Of a stretch of DNA of 64,000 nt, positions 17,025 through 60,919 are shown in pieces. Both the position numbers and the translations under genes were made by a program. Every line of letters starts with the position of its first letter. The stretch's first letter is position 1. The notes beneath the pieces are model-generated. The model was not told where the DNA came from. It made no database searches and saw only the letters and a list, made by a program, of their open reading frames with translations. The DNA is from an uncultured Clostridia bacterium (GTDB taxonomy: Bacteria; Bacillota; Clostridia; TANB77; CAG-508). Where the stretch lies: positions 271 to 64,270 of the forward strand of contig CAOXTD010000009.1 in NCBI GenBank assembly GCA_948560265.1. The letters are read 5' to 3'.

Positions 17025-17468
17025 ATGCAGGGGATTGTTGCGTTTATTAGAGAATATAGATATATTATTGTGCCTTTTTTGGTATGGTTTGGAATTCAAT
17101 TATTTAAATTTCTTTATGATATTGTAAAAGAAAAAAAATTTAACTTTAAAAGACTTATGCAAGCAGGAGGAATGCCAAGTTCACACTCAGCAGTAGTGGT
17201 AGCATTAACTACTATGATAGCAAAAGCGGAGGGATTAACATCTCCTTTATTTGGTGTATCCCTTATTTTTTCTTTTGTTGTTATGTATGATGCAGCAGGT
17301 GTAAGAAGAGCAGCAGGAAAACAAGCGAAGTTGTTAAATAAAATTGTAGAAACTCCAGGATTAAGTGGAGTAGAAGTTTCAGAAAGATTAGTGGAAGTTT
17401 TAGGACATACACCAGTACAAGTTTTTGTAGGTGCATTTATTGGACTAATTGTGGGAATAATCATTTAG
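17025..17468 (+). CDS. divergent PAP2-family membrane protein (DUF212-like)
   Basis: GGMPSSHSA and YDAAGVRR motifs. Confidence 0.8.
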   Translation: MQGIVAFIREYRYIIVPFLVWFGIQLFKFLYDIVKEKKFNFKRLMQAGGMPSSHSAVVVALTTMIAKAEGLTSPLFGVSLIFSFVVMYDAAGVRRAAGKQAKLLNKIVETPGLSGVEVSERLVEVLGHTPVQVFVGAFIGLIVGIII

Positions 17469-17530
17469 TGTCAGGTTGGGGACGTTCCTTTTTCTGACAA
17501 AAGTGTCATACTGGGGACATACCTTGAAAA
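17468..17530 (+). repeat. dispersed hairpin element, copy a (double unit)
   Basis: TAG|TGTCAGGTTGGGGACGTTCCTTTTTCTGACA followed by a second unit TGTCATACTGGGGACATACC. Starts at the stop codon of the upstream gene. Confidence 0.8.
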
Positions 17531-17551
17531 GATTAAAAGGAGGAACCTTAA

Positions 17552-19213
17552 ATGGAAGATGTAGATATTGCAAGAAATACGAAGCTAGAAAGAATTTCTA
17601 AAATAGCACAAGACTTAGGAATTCAGGAAGAAGAATTAGAACAATATGGAAAATACAAAGCAAAGATTTCTCCAGAAGTATATAAGCGATTAGAGAATAA
17701 AGAAAATGGAAAGTTAATTTTAGTAACAGCAATTAATCCTACTCCTTTAGGAGAAGGAAAAACTACTATGGCAATTGGACTAGCTGATGGCTTAAGAAAA
17801 ATAGGAAAAAAGGCAGTTCTTGCATTAAGAGAGCCTTCTTTAGGACCTGTGTTTGGAATTAAAGGTGGAGCTACTGGTGGAGGTCATAGCCAAATAGCTC
17901 CAATGGAAGATATCAACTTGCATTTTACAGGGGATATTCATGCTATTACTTCAGCAAATAATTTACTTTCTGCTATGATAGATAATCATATTTATTTCGG
18001 AAATGAGTTAGGTTTTGATAGAGTAGTATGGAAAAGATGTGTAGACTTAAATGATAGACAATTAAGAAAAGTAGATACAGGTTTATCAGAAGAAAAAAAC
18101 ATTGTACCAAGAATGGATGGATTTGATATTTCTGTTGCTTCTGAAATTATGGCAATTTTTTGCTTAGCAACTGATATAGAAGATTTAAAAAGGAGAATTG
18201 GAAATATTATTGTTGGTTATACTAAGGATAATAAACCAATTACAGCCAGAGATTTAAAAGCAGAAGGTAGTATGACTGTTTTATTAAAAGATGCAATCAA
18301 TCCAAATTTAGTGCAAACTTTAGAAAAAACACCTGCAATTGTTCATGGTGGACCATTTGCTAATATTGCTCATGGTTGTAATAGTGTAATTGCTACAAAA
18401 CTAGCTTTAAAATTAGGGGATTATGTTGTTACAGAGGCAGGATTTGGAGCAGATTTGGGAGCAGAAAAATTCTTAGATATTAAATGTAGAAAAGCAAATT
18501 TAAAGCCTGATGTGGTTGTTTGCGTAGCAACTATGAAAGCTTTGAAATATCATGGTGGAATGCCAAAAGAGGACTTAAATCAAGAGAGTGTAGAATATTT
18601 AGAAAAAGGTTTTGAAAACTTAGAAAGACATGTAGACAATTTGAAAAATCGCTATGGTTTAAATGTAGTAGTGGCAATTAATAAATATACACAAGATACA
18701 AAGGAAGAAGTAGAATTTTTACAAAATAAACTAAAAGAAAAAGAAATAGAATTAAGTTTAGTAGAAAGCTGGGAAAAAGGTGGAGATGGTGCTACTGATT
18801 TAGCAGAACAAATTGTAAGCTTAGTGGACAAACAAGAAGATTTCAAATTTGCATATGAACTACAAGAAAGTATAGAAAATAAAATTAAGGCTGTGGCACA
18901 AAAAGTATATGGAGCGCAAGATGTGGAGTATACTGAGGAAGCCAAAAAACACATTGAGGAAATTGAAAAATTAGGATATGGTAATTTACCAGTATGTATT
19001 GCAAAAACACAGTATTCTTTCTCAGATGACCCTAAAAATTTAGAATGTAAAGAGCCATTTAACATTCATGTACAAGATGTGGTGCTAAGAGCAGGTGCAG
19101 AATTTGTAGTAGTGCTAACAGGAAAGATTATGACAATGCCAGGTCTTCCAAAAGTTCCAGCTGCTGAGAAAATTGATTTAGACGAAAAAAATAATATTAT
19201 AGGAATATTTTAA
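17552..19213 (+). CDS. fhs: formate--tetrahydrofolate ligase
   Basis: 553 aa; TPLGEGKTT and FANIAHGCNS motifs. Confidence 0.97.
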   Translation: MEDVDIARNTKLERISKIAQDLGIQEEELEQYGKYKAKISPEVYKRLENKENGKLILVTAINPTPLGEGKTTMAIGLADGLRKIGKKAVLALREPSLGPVFGIKGGATGGGHSQIAPMEDINLHFTGDIHAITSANNLLSAMIDNHIYFGNELGFDRVVWKRCVDLNDRQLRKVDTGLSEEKNIVPRMDGFDISVASEIMAIFCLATDIEDLKRRIGNIIVGYTKDNKPITARDLKAEGSMTVLLKDAINPNLVQTLEKTPAIVHGGPFANIAHGCNSVIATKLALKLGDYVVTEAGFGADLGAEKFLDIKCRKANLKPDVVVCVATMKALKYHGGMPKEDLNQESVEYLEKGFENLERHVDNLKNRYGLNVVVAINKYTQDTKEEVEFLQNKLKEKEIELSLVESWEKGGDGATDLAEQIVSLVDKQEDFKFAYELQESIENKIKAVAQKVYGAQDVEYTEEAKKHIEEIEKLGYGNLPVCIAKTQYSFSDDPKNLECKEPFNIHVQDVVLRAGAEFVVVLTGKIMTMPGLPKVPAAEKIDLDEKNNIIGIF

Positions 19214-19283
19214 ATTTGAATAAATACACCAATTCTGGTTAAAATAAACATAACAGATTTTAACGGAAAGTGGTGTATTTTTT

Positions 19284-59012: not shown

Positions 59013-59570
59013 ATGTACTTAATAGTAGGATTAGGAAATCCAGAGCCAGAATATAGTAAAACTAGGCATAATATGGGGTTTGATGTAATTAATGAAATAG
59101 CCAAAAGGCAAGAAATAGAGCTATCTAGAACAAAATTCAATGGAATTTATGGAAGTGGTATGATAGAAGAAAAAAAAGTTATTCTGTTAAAACCACAAAC
59201 TTTTATGAACTTAAGTGGACAATGTATCAAACCATTTATTGACTTTTATAAAATTCCAATAGAAAATGTACTAGTCATTTATGATGACATGGATGTAGAG
59301 ATAGGCTCTATTAAATTGCGCAAAAAAGGTGGACCAGGGACACATAATGGAGCAAAATCAGTAGTACATGAACTAGTATCAGAAGACTTTCCGAGAATTC
59401 GAGTAGGAATTGGAAAACCAGTAGATGAATATGATGCTATTGATTATGTAATAGGACAATTAGAGGAAGAAATCTATAAAGAATTAAAAGTAGGAATTGA
59501 TACAGCGGCAGAGGCAGTAGAAGAATTCCTAAAAAATGGGATTGAAGTAGCAATGAATAAGTTTAACTAA
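59013..59570 (+). CDS. pth: peptidyl-tRNA hydrolase
   Basis: IVGLGNPEPEYSKTRHNMGF. Confidence 0.95.
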   Translation: MYLIVGLGNPEPEYSKTRHNMGFDVINEIAKRQEIELSRTKFNGIYGSGMIEEKKVILLKPQTFMNLSGQCIKPFIDFYKIPIENVLVIYDDMDVEIGSIKLRKKGGPGTHNGAKSVVHELVSEDFPRIRVGIGKPVDEYDAIDYVIGQLEEEIYKELKVGIDTAAEAVEEFLKNGIEVAMNKFN

Positions 59571-59622
59571 GTGTCAGTTTGGGGACGTTAGTTTAACTGA
59601 CATCTGTCCCTTAACTGACATT
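59571..59622 (+). repeat. dispersed hairpin element, copy d (full palindromic form)
   Basis: TAA|G-TGTCAGTT-TGGGGACGTTAGTTT-AACTGACA-tct-GTCCC-tt-AACTGACA. Confidence 0.8.
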
Positions 59623-59654
59623 TAAAACTGAAGTTAGGAAGGAATAATAAATTA

Positions 59655-60857
59655 ATGCAAGAAATTATAATCAATCAAGACAACGAAAATAGTAAAATAG
59701 TAGCTTTGGTAGAAAATGGAAAACTAGTAGAAAAATATGAAGAAAAAGCAGGACAAGAACGCTTAGAAGGTAACATCTATTTAGGAAAAGTAGAAAATGT
59801 CCTTTTAGGGATGCAAGCAGCATTTGTAGATATTGGAACAGAGAAAAATACTTTTATTCATATTAAAGATGTTATTCCAAAAGTAAGTAATGAAACAGGC
59901 AACAAGAATGAAACATTAAGTAAGTATGATATTAAAAATTATATTCGTTCAGGAATGCCAATTTTAGTGCAAGTAAAAAGAGACAGTACAAATAAAAAAG
60001 GAGCAAGAGTATCTACTCATATTAGTCTACCAGGAAGATTTATTGTATTAATGCCAGAAACAGAATTTATTACTATTTCTAAAAAGATAGAAAAAGAAGC
60101 GGAAAAGAAAAGGCTTTTAGGAATAGTGAAAGAAGTTTTACCAAAAGGATATGGAGCCATCATAAGAACCTCAGCACAAGAAAGGCAAAAAGAATTGATA
60201 GAACAAGATATTCAAAAAGTGATTCAAGAATATGAGGACATTCGAAAGAAGGCTCAAGAATTAGAAAAGAAAGAAAAATTTGAGCCAACATTACTTTATA
60301 AAAATGACGGAATTGTTGGGAAAATTCTAACGGATTTAGTGGATCAAGAATTAATAAGAATTGTGACTAATCAGGAAGGAATAGCAAAAGAAGTAACTAA
60401 GTTTTTAGAAGATACAGGACTTCAAGGTAAGGTTAAATTAGAGTTAAAACATGAAGATATCTTAAGCATATATGACATTGGAGAGCAGATAGAAAAGGCA
60501 AATAACCGCAAAATTTGGCTAAAATGTGGTGGATTTATCACCATTGATAAAACAGAAGCATTAACAGCCATCGATGTCAACTCAGGAAAATACATAGGCA
60601 ATAAAGACTTAGAACAAACAGTATATACGGTTAACAAAGAAGCAAGCATAGAAATAGCAAAACAACTACGTTTGCGTGATATTGGAGGAATTGTCATTAT
60701 TGACTATATCGATATGGAAAAACAAGAGACAAAGCAAAAAATTCTAGAAACTTTGGAAGAAGCACTAAAGAAAGACCGTTCCAAAACTCAAATTATAGGC
60801 TTCACACCACTAGACCTATTAGAAATGACAAGAAAACATATGTGTAGTAATGATTAG
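59655..60857 (+). CDS. rng: Rne/Rng-family ribonuclease (RNase G-like)
   Basis: S1 domain GNIYLGKVENVLLGMQAAFVDIG and catalytic region TAIDVNSGK. Confidence 0.9.
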   Translation: MQEIIINQDNENSKIVALVENGKLVEKYEEKAGQERLEGNIYLGKVENVLLGMQAAFVDIGTEKNTFIHIKDVIPKVSNETGNKNETLSKYDIKNYIRSGMPILVQVKRDSTNKKGARVSTHISLPGRFIVLMPETEFITISKKIEKEAEKKRLLGIVKEVLPKGYGAIIRTSAQERQKELIEQDIQKVIQEYEDIRKKAQELEKKEKFEPTLLYKNDGIVGKILTDLVDQELIRIVTNQEGIAKEVTKFLEDTGLQGKVKLELKHEDILSIYDIGEQIEKANNRKIWLKCGGFITIDKTEALTAIDVNSGKYIGNKDLEQTVYTVNKEASIEIAKQLRLRDIGGIVIIDYIDMEKQETKQKILETLEEALKKDRSKTQIIGFTPLDLLEMTRKHMCSND

Positions 60858-60919
60858 TGTCAGGTTGGGGACGTTCCTTTTTCTGACAAAAATGTCAGAC
60901 TGGGGACATACCTTGAAAG
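60858..60919 (+). repeat. dispersed hairpin element, copy b (double unit, about 95% identical to copy a)
   Basis: TAG|TGTCAGGTTGGGGACGTTCCTTTTTCTGACAAAAATGTCAGACTGGGGACATACCTTGAAAG. Confidence 0.8.

Follow-up and report, generated by a model that had tools for sequence, protein, structure and literature searches.

Systems of repetitive extragenic palindromic (REP) sequences and REP-associated tyrosine transposases (RAYTs) have been worked out almost wholly in Proteobacteria. A RAYT gene between inverted repeats constitutes a REPtron; units whose repeats have no GTAG tag are known as TIRtrons and their enzymes as TIRYT (Di Nocera et al. 2013, PMC3733652). Many TIRtron repeats share the motif GGGGWSAS, and some of them form dispersed families of singles and dimers (PMC3733652). 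Enzymes of TnpAREP subclass 2.1 carry C-terminal helix-turn-helix (HTH) extensions and showed no REP-like sequences near their genes (Quentin et al. 2018, PMC6006769). RAYT Group 1 occurs in Clostridia, among others, and the 16-mers that flank its genes are of low abundance, with about 12 per replicon (Bertels et al. 2017, PMC5581495). TIRYT, subclass 2.1 and Group 1 are probably the same enzymes. This largest RAYT group has had no clear high-copy repeat and no known substrate rules. Group 2 and Group 3 enzymes, for their part, recognise folded single-stranded REPs, and the weight of tag, stem and loop varies among them (PMC8266576). The subject of this report is a dispersed family of hairpin-forming repeats in a stretch of 64,000 nt (the window; 31% GC) from an uncultured Clostridia bacterium (assembly GCA_948560265.1, contig CAOXTD010000009.1, positions 271 to 64,270). 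It is most likely a previously undescribed REP/terminal inverted repeat (TIR) family, maintained at the DNA level by an HUH transposase of the RAYT/TIRYT type. Its hosts form a lineage of uncultured, low-GC Clostridia, mostly from the gut. Among published classes the TIRtron comes closest, and the family would be a new, unusually dense member of that class in Bacillota.

An earlier note on the window had described eight stem-loops, a to h, with a conserved loop and covarying stems at stop codons. That a genuine dispersed family with a conserved core exists was borne out. The 15-mer TTGGGGACGTTAGTT, with up to three mismatches allowed, has 7 matches in the window against 0.84 expected, and none of 100 shuffles reached 7. 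Of the 11 GGGGAC hexamers in the window, 10 lie within elements. A search with nhmmer, using arm profiles made solely from copies in other genomes, recovered seven of the eight proposed copies (a to g), every one on the + strand. The motif strings are absent from the searchable literature, and no Rfam hit came near the gathering score, in agreement with the note's failure to recognise a named repeat or RNA family. Further copies were found in related metagenome-assembled genomes (MAGs). A scan for TGTCN{3,4}TTGGGGACGTTMSTT over 185,579 species genomes returned at least 96 loci, about nine of which are chance matches in unrelated phyla without the GACA arm. The other matches listed belong to roughly a dozen MAGs of uncultured Clostridia, Candidatus Scatovivens among them, which derive from the guts of mouse, rabbit, chicken and others. 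At many of the listed loci a + match is followed by a − match 50–140 nt away, forming an inverted doublet. Altogether, 133 perfect-stem units, including 33 doublets, are present in 797 kb of loci ascertained in this way. L-numbers below denote loci or contigs from other assemblies, chiefly related Clostridia MAGs.

The stem-loop of the earlier note (here H1) consists of TGTC and a variable box, the core GGGGACGTT..., and a complementary box followed by GACA, and it is part of a larger arm. In the a-type arm (copies a and b), which reads TGTCAG-GTT-GGGGAC-GTTCCTTTTT-CTGACA-AAAG-TGTCAT-ACT-GGGGAC-ATACCTT, the second unit is direct. In the d-type arm (copies d and f), the second unit is inverted and the arm ends ...AACTGACA-TCT-GTCCC-TT-AACTGACA. 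The core was conserved as the note had held, but it is not a uniformly unpaired loop: in d and f the GGGGAC of the supposed loop pairs with the downstream GTCCC(C), and the minimum free energy structure is a longer hairpin. Two inverted arms make up a doublet of 70–140 nt, similar to the REP doublets known as REPINs, that can be folded into one long hairpin. One full doublet folds at −48.7 kcal/mol (z −12.8). As folded DNA, copy f reaches −16.2 kcal/mol (z −6.4) and copy d −11.7 kcal/mol (z −4.8).

Copies a and b are near-identical. Copy a (17469-17525, +; nhmmer E 9.5e-19) opens with an H1 at 17469-17499, TGTCAG-GTT-GGGGACGTTCCTTTTT-CTGACA, and continues with the direct second unit TGTCAT-ACT-GGGGAC-ATACCTT. 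Its first base comes next after the TAG of a divergent-PAP2 (DUF212) gene, and its end lies about 10 nt 5' of the Shine–Dalgarno (SD) sequence of fhs. Copy b (60858-60914, +; E 5e-19) stands directly after the TAG of rng, at the end of an operon. Copy c (44626-44647, +; nhmmer match from 44624) is a deletion derivative of the a-type arm, TGTCAGGTTGGGGAC joined to AAACCTT, directly after the TAG of a DAGK/PAP2 gene. The same site carries a full arm in L070 and L059, and the deletion endpoints fall in two direct GGGGAC repeats. Copy d (59572-59620, +; E 1.3e-16) is TGTCAGTT-T-GGGGAC-GTTAGTTT-AACTGACA-TCT-GTCCC-TT-AACTGACA. Copy f (35275-35326, +; also matched by nhmmer) is a d-type arm, TGTCGCAC-TT-GGGGAC-GTTAGTTAA-GTGCGACA-TGT-GTCCCC-TA-GTGCGACA. 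It follows directly on the TAA of a gene for a SAM-methyltransferase, and 7 nt separate its end from the SD of an RluA-type gene. The stem difference between d and f is as first noted (AGTT/AACT vs GCAC/GTGC). Copy e (46461-46491, +; nhmmer match 46466-46493, E 0.0023) is a decayed H1, TGTTGGTT-T-AGGGACGTATCTTT-AACTGACA, directly after the TAG of a HydC/NuoE-like gene. In L059, the same decayed copy is the left arm of a doublet. Copy g (23106-23137, +; nhmmer match to 23138, E 5.5e-9) is an H1 of the TTAGTT-loop type, TGTCGCAC...TGCGACA, and its TGTC end is 5–7 nt from the complement of the SD of serS (21798-23084, −). Rfam found no T-box leader upstream of serS in 23085-23250, and copy g lies directly against the serS SD.

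The note had set copies a to f immediately behind a stop codon. By the ends of the open reading frames (ORFs) this is true of a, b, c, e and f, whereas d starts one base past the pth TAA (TAA-G-TGTC). Pfam confirmed the flanking genes that it had named, namely divergent PAP2–fhs, methyltransferase–RluA-type, DAGK/PAP2–DUF3048, NuoE-like–NuoF-like and pth–rng. No T-run directly follows any of copies a to g, as would be expected of an intrinsic terminator. A separate hairpin with a T-run can be read in the sequence 3' of copy b, at about 60919-60947; a terminator scan of 59400-61100, which covers copies d and b, made no call, that hairpin included. The remaining stem-loop, h (32098-32135, +), was dropped because it has no nhmmer match and its core is not conserved in the orthologous regions of L079, L097 and L087. 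It is a chance TGTC...GGGGGAC likeness upstream of a glmS ribozyme. The ribozyme lies at 31867-32025 (−; Rfam RF00234, 91.6 bits), upstream of a 624-aa ORF at 29991-31865.

The compensatory change of the stems, which the note had seen in a few copies, was confirmed in 44 distinct hairpins from the window and from the MAG loci of about a dozen MAGs. MAFFT alignment of whole hairpins placed gaps beside TGTC/GACA and broke the stem register, and the arms were anchored at both ends instead. The hairpins were picked by the core and the TGTC/GACA ends alone, so positions 5–8 of the stem played no part in their choice, while the invariance of the core GGGGACGTT is partly fixed by the way the copies were collected (exact-match scan and regular expressions). 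The TGTC/GACA base of the H1 stem is invariant, and positions 5–8 are variable but paired. Pairing was found in 86.4% of cells compared with 74.8% in shuffles, and the covariation score was 0.302 compared with 0.116. Neither value was reached in any of 500 shuffles, and controls with slid partners gave at most 0.084. Pair 5 is AU in 23 hairpins, CG in 12 and GC in 4; pair 6 is GC in 20 and CG in 12. The variable boxes include AG, AC, GCAC, AGTT, CGAT, CCAA, CGTT, ACTTTT and ACCATT, each with its own complement.

Covarying stems could be expected of a cis-acting RNA that works at the stop codon and modulates translation termination, ribosome rescue, downstream coupling or the stability of the mRNA 3' end. 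Several properties of the hairpins speak against this explanation. Among stem mismatches, GT/TG and AC/CA number 3 and 5 at positions 5–6, and 14 and 8 at positions 5–8. With no excess of G·T over A·C, the pairing constraint is not specific to one transcribed strand. The arms of copies a and b hardly exceed shuffles in stability (z −0.2 and −0.7), and no copy matches Rfam. The doublets are strand-symmetric. The singlets are only weakly oriented, with 52 on the G-rich strand and 28 on the other (p 0.01) and, relative to genes, 33 co-oriented and 21 not; of the 54 singlets located between tandem genes, 21 run antisense to the transcript. The uniform orientation in the window, where all seven copies lie on the strongly G-skewed + strand, is matched by a weak bias only in the wider data. 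The earlier note had proposed a structured RNA or a protein-binding motif. Its second option is the one retained here, in the form of a DNA repeat for an HUH enzyme. One observation concerns the site of copy e. There and in L059 (1140-1225, −), both hairpins of an old doublet share the change TGTCAG to TGTTGG, two substitutions on the sense strand that keep G·T pairing on that strand only. Further TGTTGG variants of this G·U-compatible kind, sought as a sign of selection at the RNA level, were not found beyond this one orthologous site.

The search for a RAYT/IS200-type Y1 transposase, which the note had called for, led to a gene that lies between inverted arms in related MAGs. In two loci, facing matches 1.0–1.7 kb apart enclose an ORF of 260–269 aa. 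Among the matches listed, tblastn placed the Y1 transposase in six loci of six MAGs. All six have the same layout: a forward arm lies about 200–250 nt upstream, an inverted arm is found at the stop codon or overlaps it, and the SD and start codon of radA come next. The subtype of the flanking arms (TGTCAG, TGTCAC, TGTCAGTTTT or TGTCCGAT) is that of the other loci of the same genome. The gene has the same position directly upstream of radA in L098, with a GH15 gene on its other side, and in L108, with a small ORF there, so that this location is shared by eight genomes, in which the other neighbour is either a GH15 gene or a small ORF. Inverted flanking arms are present in the six MAG loci and in L098, while L108 and L110 showed just the 3' arm. 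A second paralog, located beside dnaE and with a d-type arm at its 3' end, is present in one MAG. The gene-flanking arms of L030, L031, L039 and L108 contain GGGGACAC, and those of L026 and L098 contain GGGGACAT, a 7/8 match to GGGGWSAS. The genome of L098 (protein P0002) does not belong to the same species as the window, and the homologue in L086 is frameshifted.

The protein belongs to the HUH/Y1 fold and is closest to TnpAREP. Its Pfam Y1_Tnp score is 44–50 bits against a cutoff of 23, and the HVH (HUH) motif and the YIHxNP tyrosine motif are invariant. A PDB search with a 37-sequence profile returned 4ER8, E. coli TnpAREP, as its sole match; searches of the PDB with a single sequence and with a 5-sequence profile gave no match. 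An AF2 model with a mean pLDDT of 86.7 had 4er8_A as its best Foldseek match (E 1.4e-6, target-normalised TM-score 0.71), followed by the IS608 and ISDra2 TnpA structures. In this model, the C-terminal residues 195–259 are helical, and a match to HTH_23 stayed below cutoff (E 0.004; precomputed or faint for P0021). About 300 homologues are present in metagenomes. The few that are named by their source are called 'transposase' or 'REP element-mobilizing transposase RayT', and the homologue clusters are each found on few contigs.

An enzyme of this fold could also belong to an active IS200/IS605 element, present in many copies and inserting 3' of a fixed tetranucleotide, and the repeats would then be its miniature derivatives (palindrome-associated transposable elements, PATEs). 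The repeats are hairpin-based and lack target duplications, as PATEs do, and the singlets show a modest bias to the strand that is the lagging-strand template (the 52 and 28 given above). Nevertheless, such an origin is very improbable. The protein scores 17–22 bits with the IS200 model, for which the cutoff is 55, far below its score with the RAYT model, and its gene occupies one syntenic chromosomal locus in eight genomes instead of being scattered. tnpB is not adjacent to the Y1 gene, and the 5' flank shows no conserved target tetranucleotide. Each end is an inverted copy of the other, which is not the case for the left and right ends (LE and RE) of IS200/IS605 elements.

A DNA-level repeat is favoured by the lack of a G·T excess, the strand-symmetric doublets, the weak orientation bias of the singlets and the transposase flanked by inverted arms. 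By analogy with E. coli TnpAREP and IS608 TnpA, the enzyme would recognise the hairpin as folded single-stranded DNA. It would read the core and the base of the stem, and the rest of the stem would need only to pair. The findings on Group 2 and Group 3 enzymes lend support to this mode of recognition by analogy only. The enzyme might then cleave and rejoin DNA so that arms are copied, deleted or exchanged, probably on the lagging-strand template. Singlets such as a to g may be the remnants of doublets in which one arm has decayed or been deleted.

Comparisons between related genomes show gain and loss of copies. Identity to the window is about 92% for the MAG ABMPRH_45_3 and about 84% for two other MAGs, and one protein of the window is identical to a protein of a mouse-gut MAG. 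Site a is filled in the window and in L040, and the corresponding spacer has no recognisable element in L008 and L078. Site g has the same copy in L012 and an a-type TGTCAC copy in L066. The 8-nt spacer between nusB and the next gene (14992-14999, +; TAA-aagaggat-ATG) is empty in the window, and L008 and L078 carry full inverted doublets of two different subfamilies there. The radA–disA junction and three other junctions also have filled and empty states in different genomes, and near-identical copies are found at unrelated loci. Site f is occupied in four species (the window, L079, L097 and L087), each time by a different subtype that starts at the same nucleotide after the stop. The subfamilies TGTCGCAC, TGTCAGG and TGTCAGTT are exchanged at orthologous nucleotides. 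The presence of different intact subfamilies at one orthologous nucleotide points to repeated targeting or replacement in place and not to simple inheritance. Hybrid hairpins with arms from different subfamilies, such as TGTCAGTTT...GTGCGACA, are also observed (L047 at about 4999, L089 at about 1717, L028 at about 3985, L094 and L096), and their junction falls in the conserved core. A full doublet of the TGTCAC subtype stands directly after a stop codon in L001 (5477-5580), at the end of a 5.6-kb IMG/VR contig that is classed as viral. In the MAG contigs L021 and L035, runs of N adjoin element copies. The repeats break or scaffold short-read assemblies, and copy numbers in MAGs are consequently underestimates.

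These comparisons bear on two further explanations. It is exceedingly improbable that the elements are static, immobile binding sites of a chromosomal or regulatory protein, or plain stable palindromes. The repeated TGTC-N-GGGGAC modules do resemble protein-binding boxes, and GGGACGTTCC is a near-palindrome. However, immobile sites do not agree with the variable presence at orthologous positions, the exchange of subtypes, the near-identical copies at unrelated loci or the association of the family with a transposase gene. The inverted doublets of 70–140 bp, with their sharp TGTC...GACA ends, are also reminiscent of classical miniature inverted-repeat transposable elements (MITEs), whose terminal inverted repeats are served by a DDE transposase. 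The chance that this is their nature is next to negligible, as none of five filled/empty comparisons revealed a target-site duplication, the only gene between facing repeats is the Y1 transposase (six of at least 96 loci, among the matches listed), and covarying internal hairpins are unexpected for DDE ends.

The association with stop codons claimed by the earlier note is strong in the wider data. Among 145 outer H1 ends, 57 lie 0–12 nt past a co-oriented stop, where 2.5% would be expected, and 25 lie at offset 0, where 0.2% would be expected (p about 1e-40), an excess of about 85-fold. When orthologous sites are collapsed, 43 of 113 ends remain within 0–12 nt and 18 of 113 at offset 0 (p about 1e-28), and all p values are below 1e-9. 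In a separate tally, 36 of 125 outer ends abut a divergently read SD, with the start codon 11–22 nt away. Of 92 elements, 75 are located between tandem genes, 15 between convergent genes and 2 between divergent genes. On a crude gene map, the median distance from stop to element is 6 nt and that from element to start is 32 nt. The stop codon beside elements is TAG in 42% of cases compared with a background of 23%. Part of this pattern follows from the empty sites, in which stop and SD are 0–10 nt apart, so that an inserted doublet necessarily touches both signals. If singlets are read as doublets that have lost one arm, as copy e compared with L059 and copy c suggest, it is the H1 end and not the inner end that abuts the signal. 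Tiny pre-existing spacers were rejected as the whole cause of the offset-0 peak: by the same crude gene map, the spacers left over at occupied junctions look like ordinary ones, and copy b lies at an operon end. This explanation is incomplete unless singlets are decayed doublets, and it does not fully account for the frequent hits on such small targets or for the TAG enrichment. A related observation was made beside the RAYT locus, where a GH15 (glucoamylase-like) ORF runs into an element (L030 4488-6434; also L015 and L031). Its TGA lies inside the 3' arm of the hairpin, and the element therefore supplies the last codons and the stop.

The placement is what the cis-acting RNA described above would lead one to expect. 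Every copy is located in a transcribed spacer, the peak at offset 0 is extreme, the distance to the stop is tighter than that to the start, TAG is over-represented, and site f has an intact element in four species. There is also a precedent in E. coli: many of its REPs are located no more than 15 nt from a stop codon, and they are reported to affect translation, as summarised in PMC12306157. Even so, a primary RNA function is decidedly unlikely. In addition to the arguments from the hairpins themselves, the sequence at the conserved site is replaced by other subfamilies instead of being kept, and the family is physically tied to a transposase gene. Since the copies are transcribed as parts of operons, they may influence mRNA or translation termination, and such effects may be secondary to mobility at the DNA level.

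The transposase-maintained DNA repeat might be extended to take in the placement. In this extension, the system would target the gap between stop and SD; subfamilies would be swapped by cleavage and strand transfer inside the GGGGACGTT core, much as rolling-circle Rep proteins nick a conserved loop; and the host would have adopted the hairpins as a kind of operon 'punctuation' by which termination, coupling or mRNA decay is tuned. Such a system would explain the offset-0 peak, the different subfamilies at the same nucleotide and the hybrid hairpins. As a whole, it is conceivable but unlikely.

A number of points weigh against a RAYT-maintained repeat family. Exact abutment to stop codons is not predicted by it and is left unexplained, as are the hybrid hairpins and the exchange of subfamilies at one and the same site. 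No transposition event was directly observed, and differences in presence could partly reflect deletion. The repeats lack a GTAG tag, and the 5' flanks of 125 outer ends revealed neither a conserved tetranucleotide nor a cleavage site; the last three nucleotides of these flanks are TTT, TAG, ATT, AAA, TAA and others. The protein scores 47.5 and 60.4 bits with the NCBIfam model REP_Tyr_transpos (NF047646), below the equivalog cutoff of 80. A tblastn search found no RAYT gene within the 64-kb window; of the genomes that have the gene, the closest shows about 92% identity. Ascertainment of the loci relied on an exact core pattern, and the repeats cause breaks in MAG assemblies. Finally, there is no clean correspondence between RAYT clades and the loop type of the flanking arms (GTTCC vs GTTAGTT). 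The idea that the clades track the loop type was rejected on account of two paralogs with different flanks in one MAG and the lack of a clean split in identity.

Set against the described systems, the arms with GGGGACAC, the absence of GTAG and the RAYT-like gene with a helical C-terminus fit the description of a TIRtron. Here, too, a RAYT-like Y1 gene is flanked by inverted repeats and not by GTAG REPs, the downstream repeat overlaps the 3' end of the gene, and GGGGACAC corresponds to the GGGGWSAS motif. The C-terminal region of the enzyme, helical in the AF2 model and weakly similar to HTH_23, may correspond to the HTH extension described for subclass 2.1. The repeats are dispersed as singles and dimers, in a class (Clostridia) from which Group 1 has been reported. 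The family differs from known TIRtrons in its density, with seven copies in 64 kb compared with about 12 flanking 16-mers per replicon in Group 1. It also differs in its composite arms, whose internal hairpin stem covaries between coexisting subfamilies, and in the abutment to stop codons, which is undescribed for TIRtrons.

With the Proteobacterial REP/BIME/REPIN-RAYT systems (E. coli TnpAREP, 4ER8; Pseudomonas REPINs), the family shares short extragenic palindromes, inverted doublets and long hairpins. A further shared feature is a flanked HUH/Y1 gene that is single-copy and vertically inherited, which is judged here by the conserved locus. Location at gene 3' ends and in operon spacers is also common to both, as with the E. 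coli REPs near stops summarised in PMC12306157. The differences are that GTAG is absent, that the hairpin core and stem base are conserved and not a 5' tetranucleotide, that the host belongs to Bacillota (Clostridia) and that the protein, which is about 100 aa longer, does not reach the equivalog threshold for RAYTs. The resemblance to IS608 and ISDra2 of the IS200/IS605 family lies in the HUH/Y1 fold, in the predicted recognition of a hairpin by its structure and a few bases, in the lack of target duplication and in the strand bias linked to replication. Distinct LE and RE on one strand, a fixed target tetranucleotide and autonomous elements in multiple copies, all of which mark IS200/IS605, were not seen here.

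The family would provide the Group 1, subclass 2.1 or TIRYT enzymes with a dense and well-defined repeat population in Bacillota. Its subfamilies amount to a natural 'mutagenesis', in which the GGGGACGTT core and the TGTC/GACA base must be conserved and positions 5–8 need only pair. Many filled and empty sites are available for study. The stop placement and the turnover of subfamilies bear on the question of whether such repeats are parasites, mutualists or regulators, and the remaining interest lies mostly in the stop abutment, the subfamily exchange and the hybrid hairpins. On the practical side, repeats of this kind break MAG assemblies and can mislead searches for RNA motifs.

Two minor observations concern the arms and the transposase locus. 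A second element of about 114 nt (TGAATAAGTGAGCGCTGCC...GATGCTCGCAG) is nested in some a-type arms, between the 3' arm of H1 and the second unit (L098 2682-2795, L099, L100, L090 4809-4920 and L005 4386-4499). It has no Rfam match. It occurs at two unrelated loci, namely the arm upstream of the RAYT gene and another junction, which is without it in L088. In all the MAGs named here, the neighbouring radA gene appears to be split into a 47-aa zinc-ribbon ORF and an ATPase/Lon-like ORF of 392–408 aa (L026 at about 4300-4450, −; L098 3861-5221; L099 3243-4605; L108 2380-3742). In some of these MAGs, the two ORFs overlap in different frames (...AAATGGTATGGATAA...), which could represent a conserved split or a programmed frameshift.

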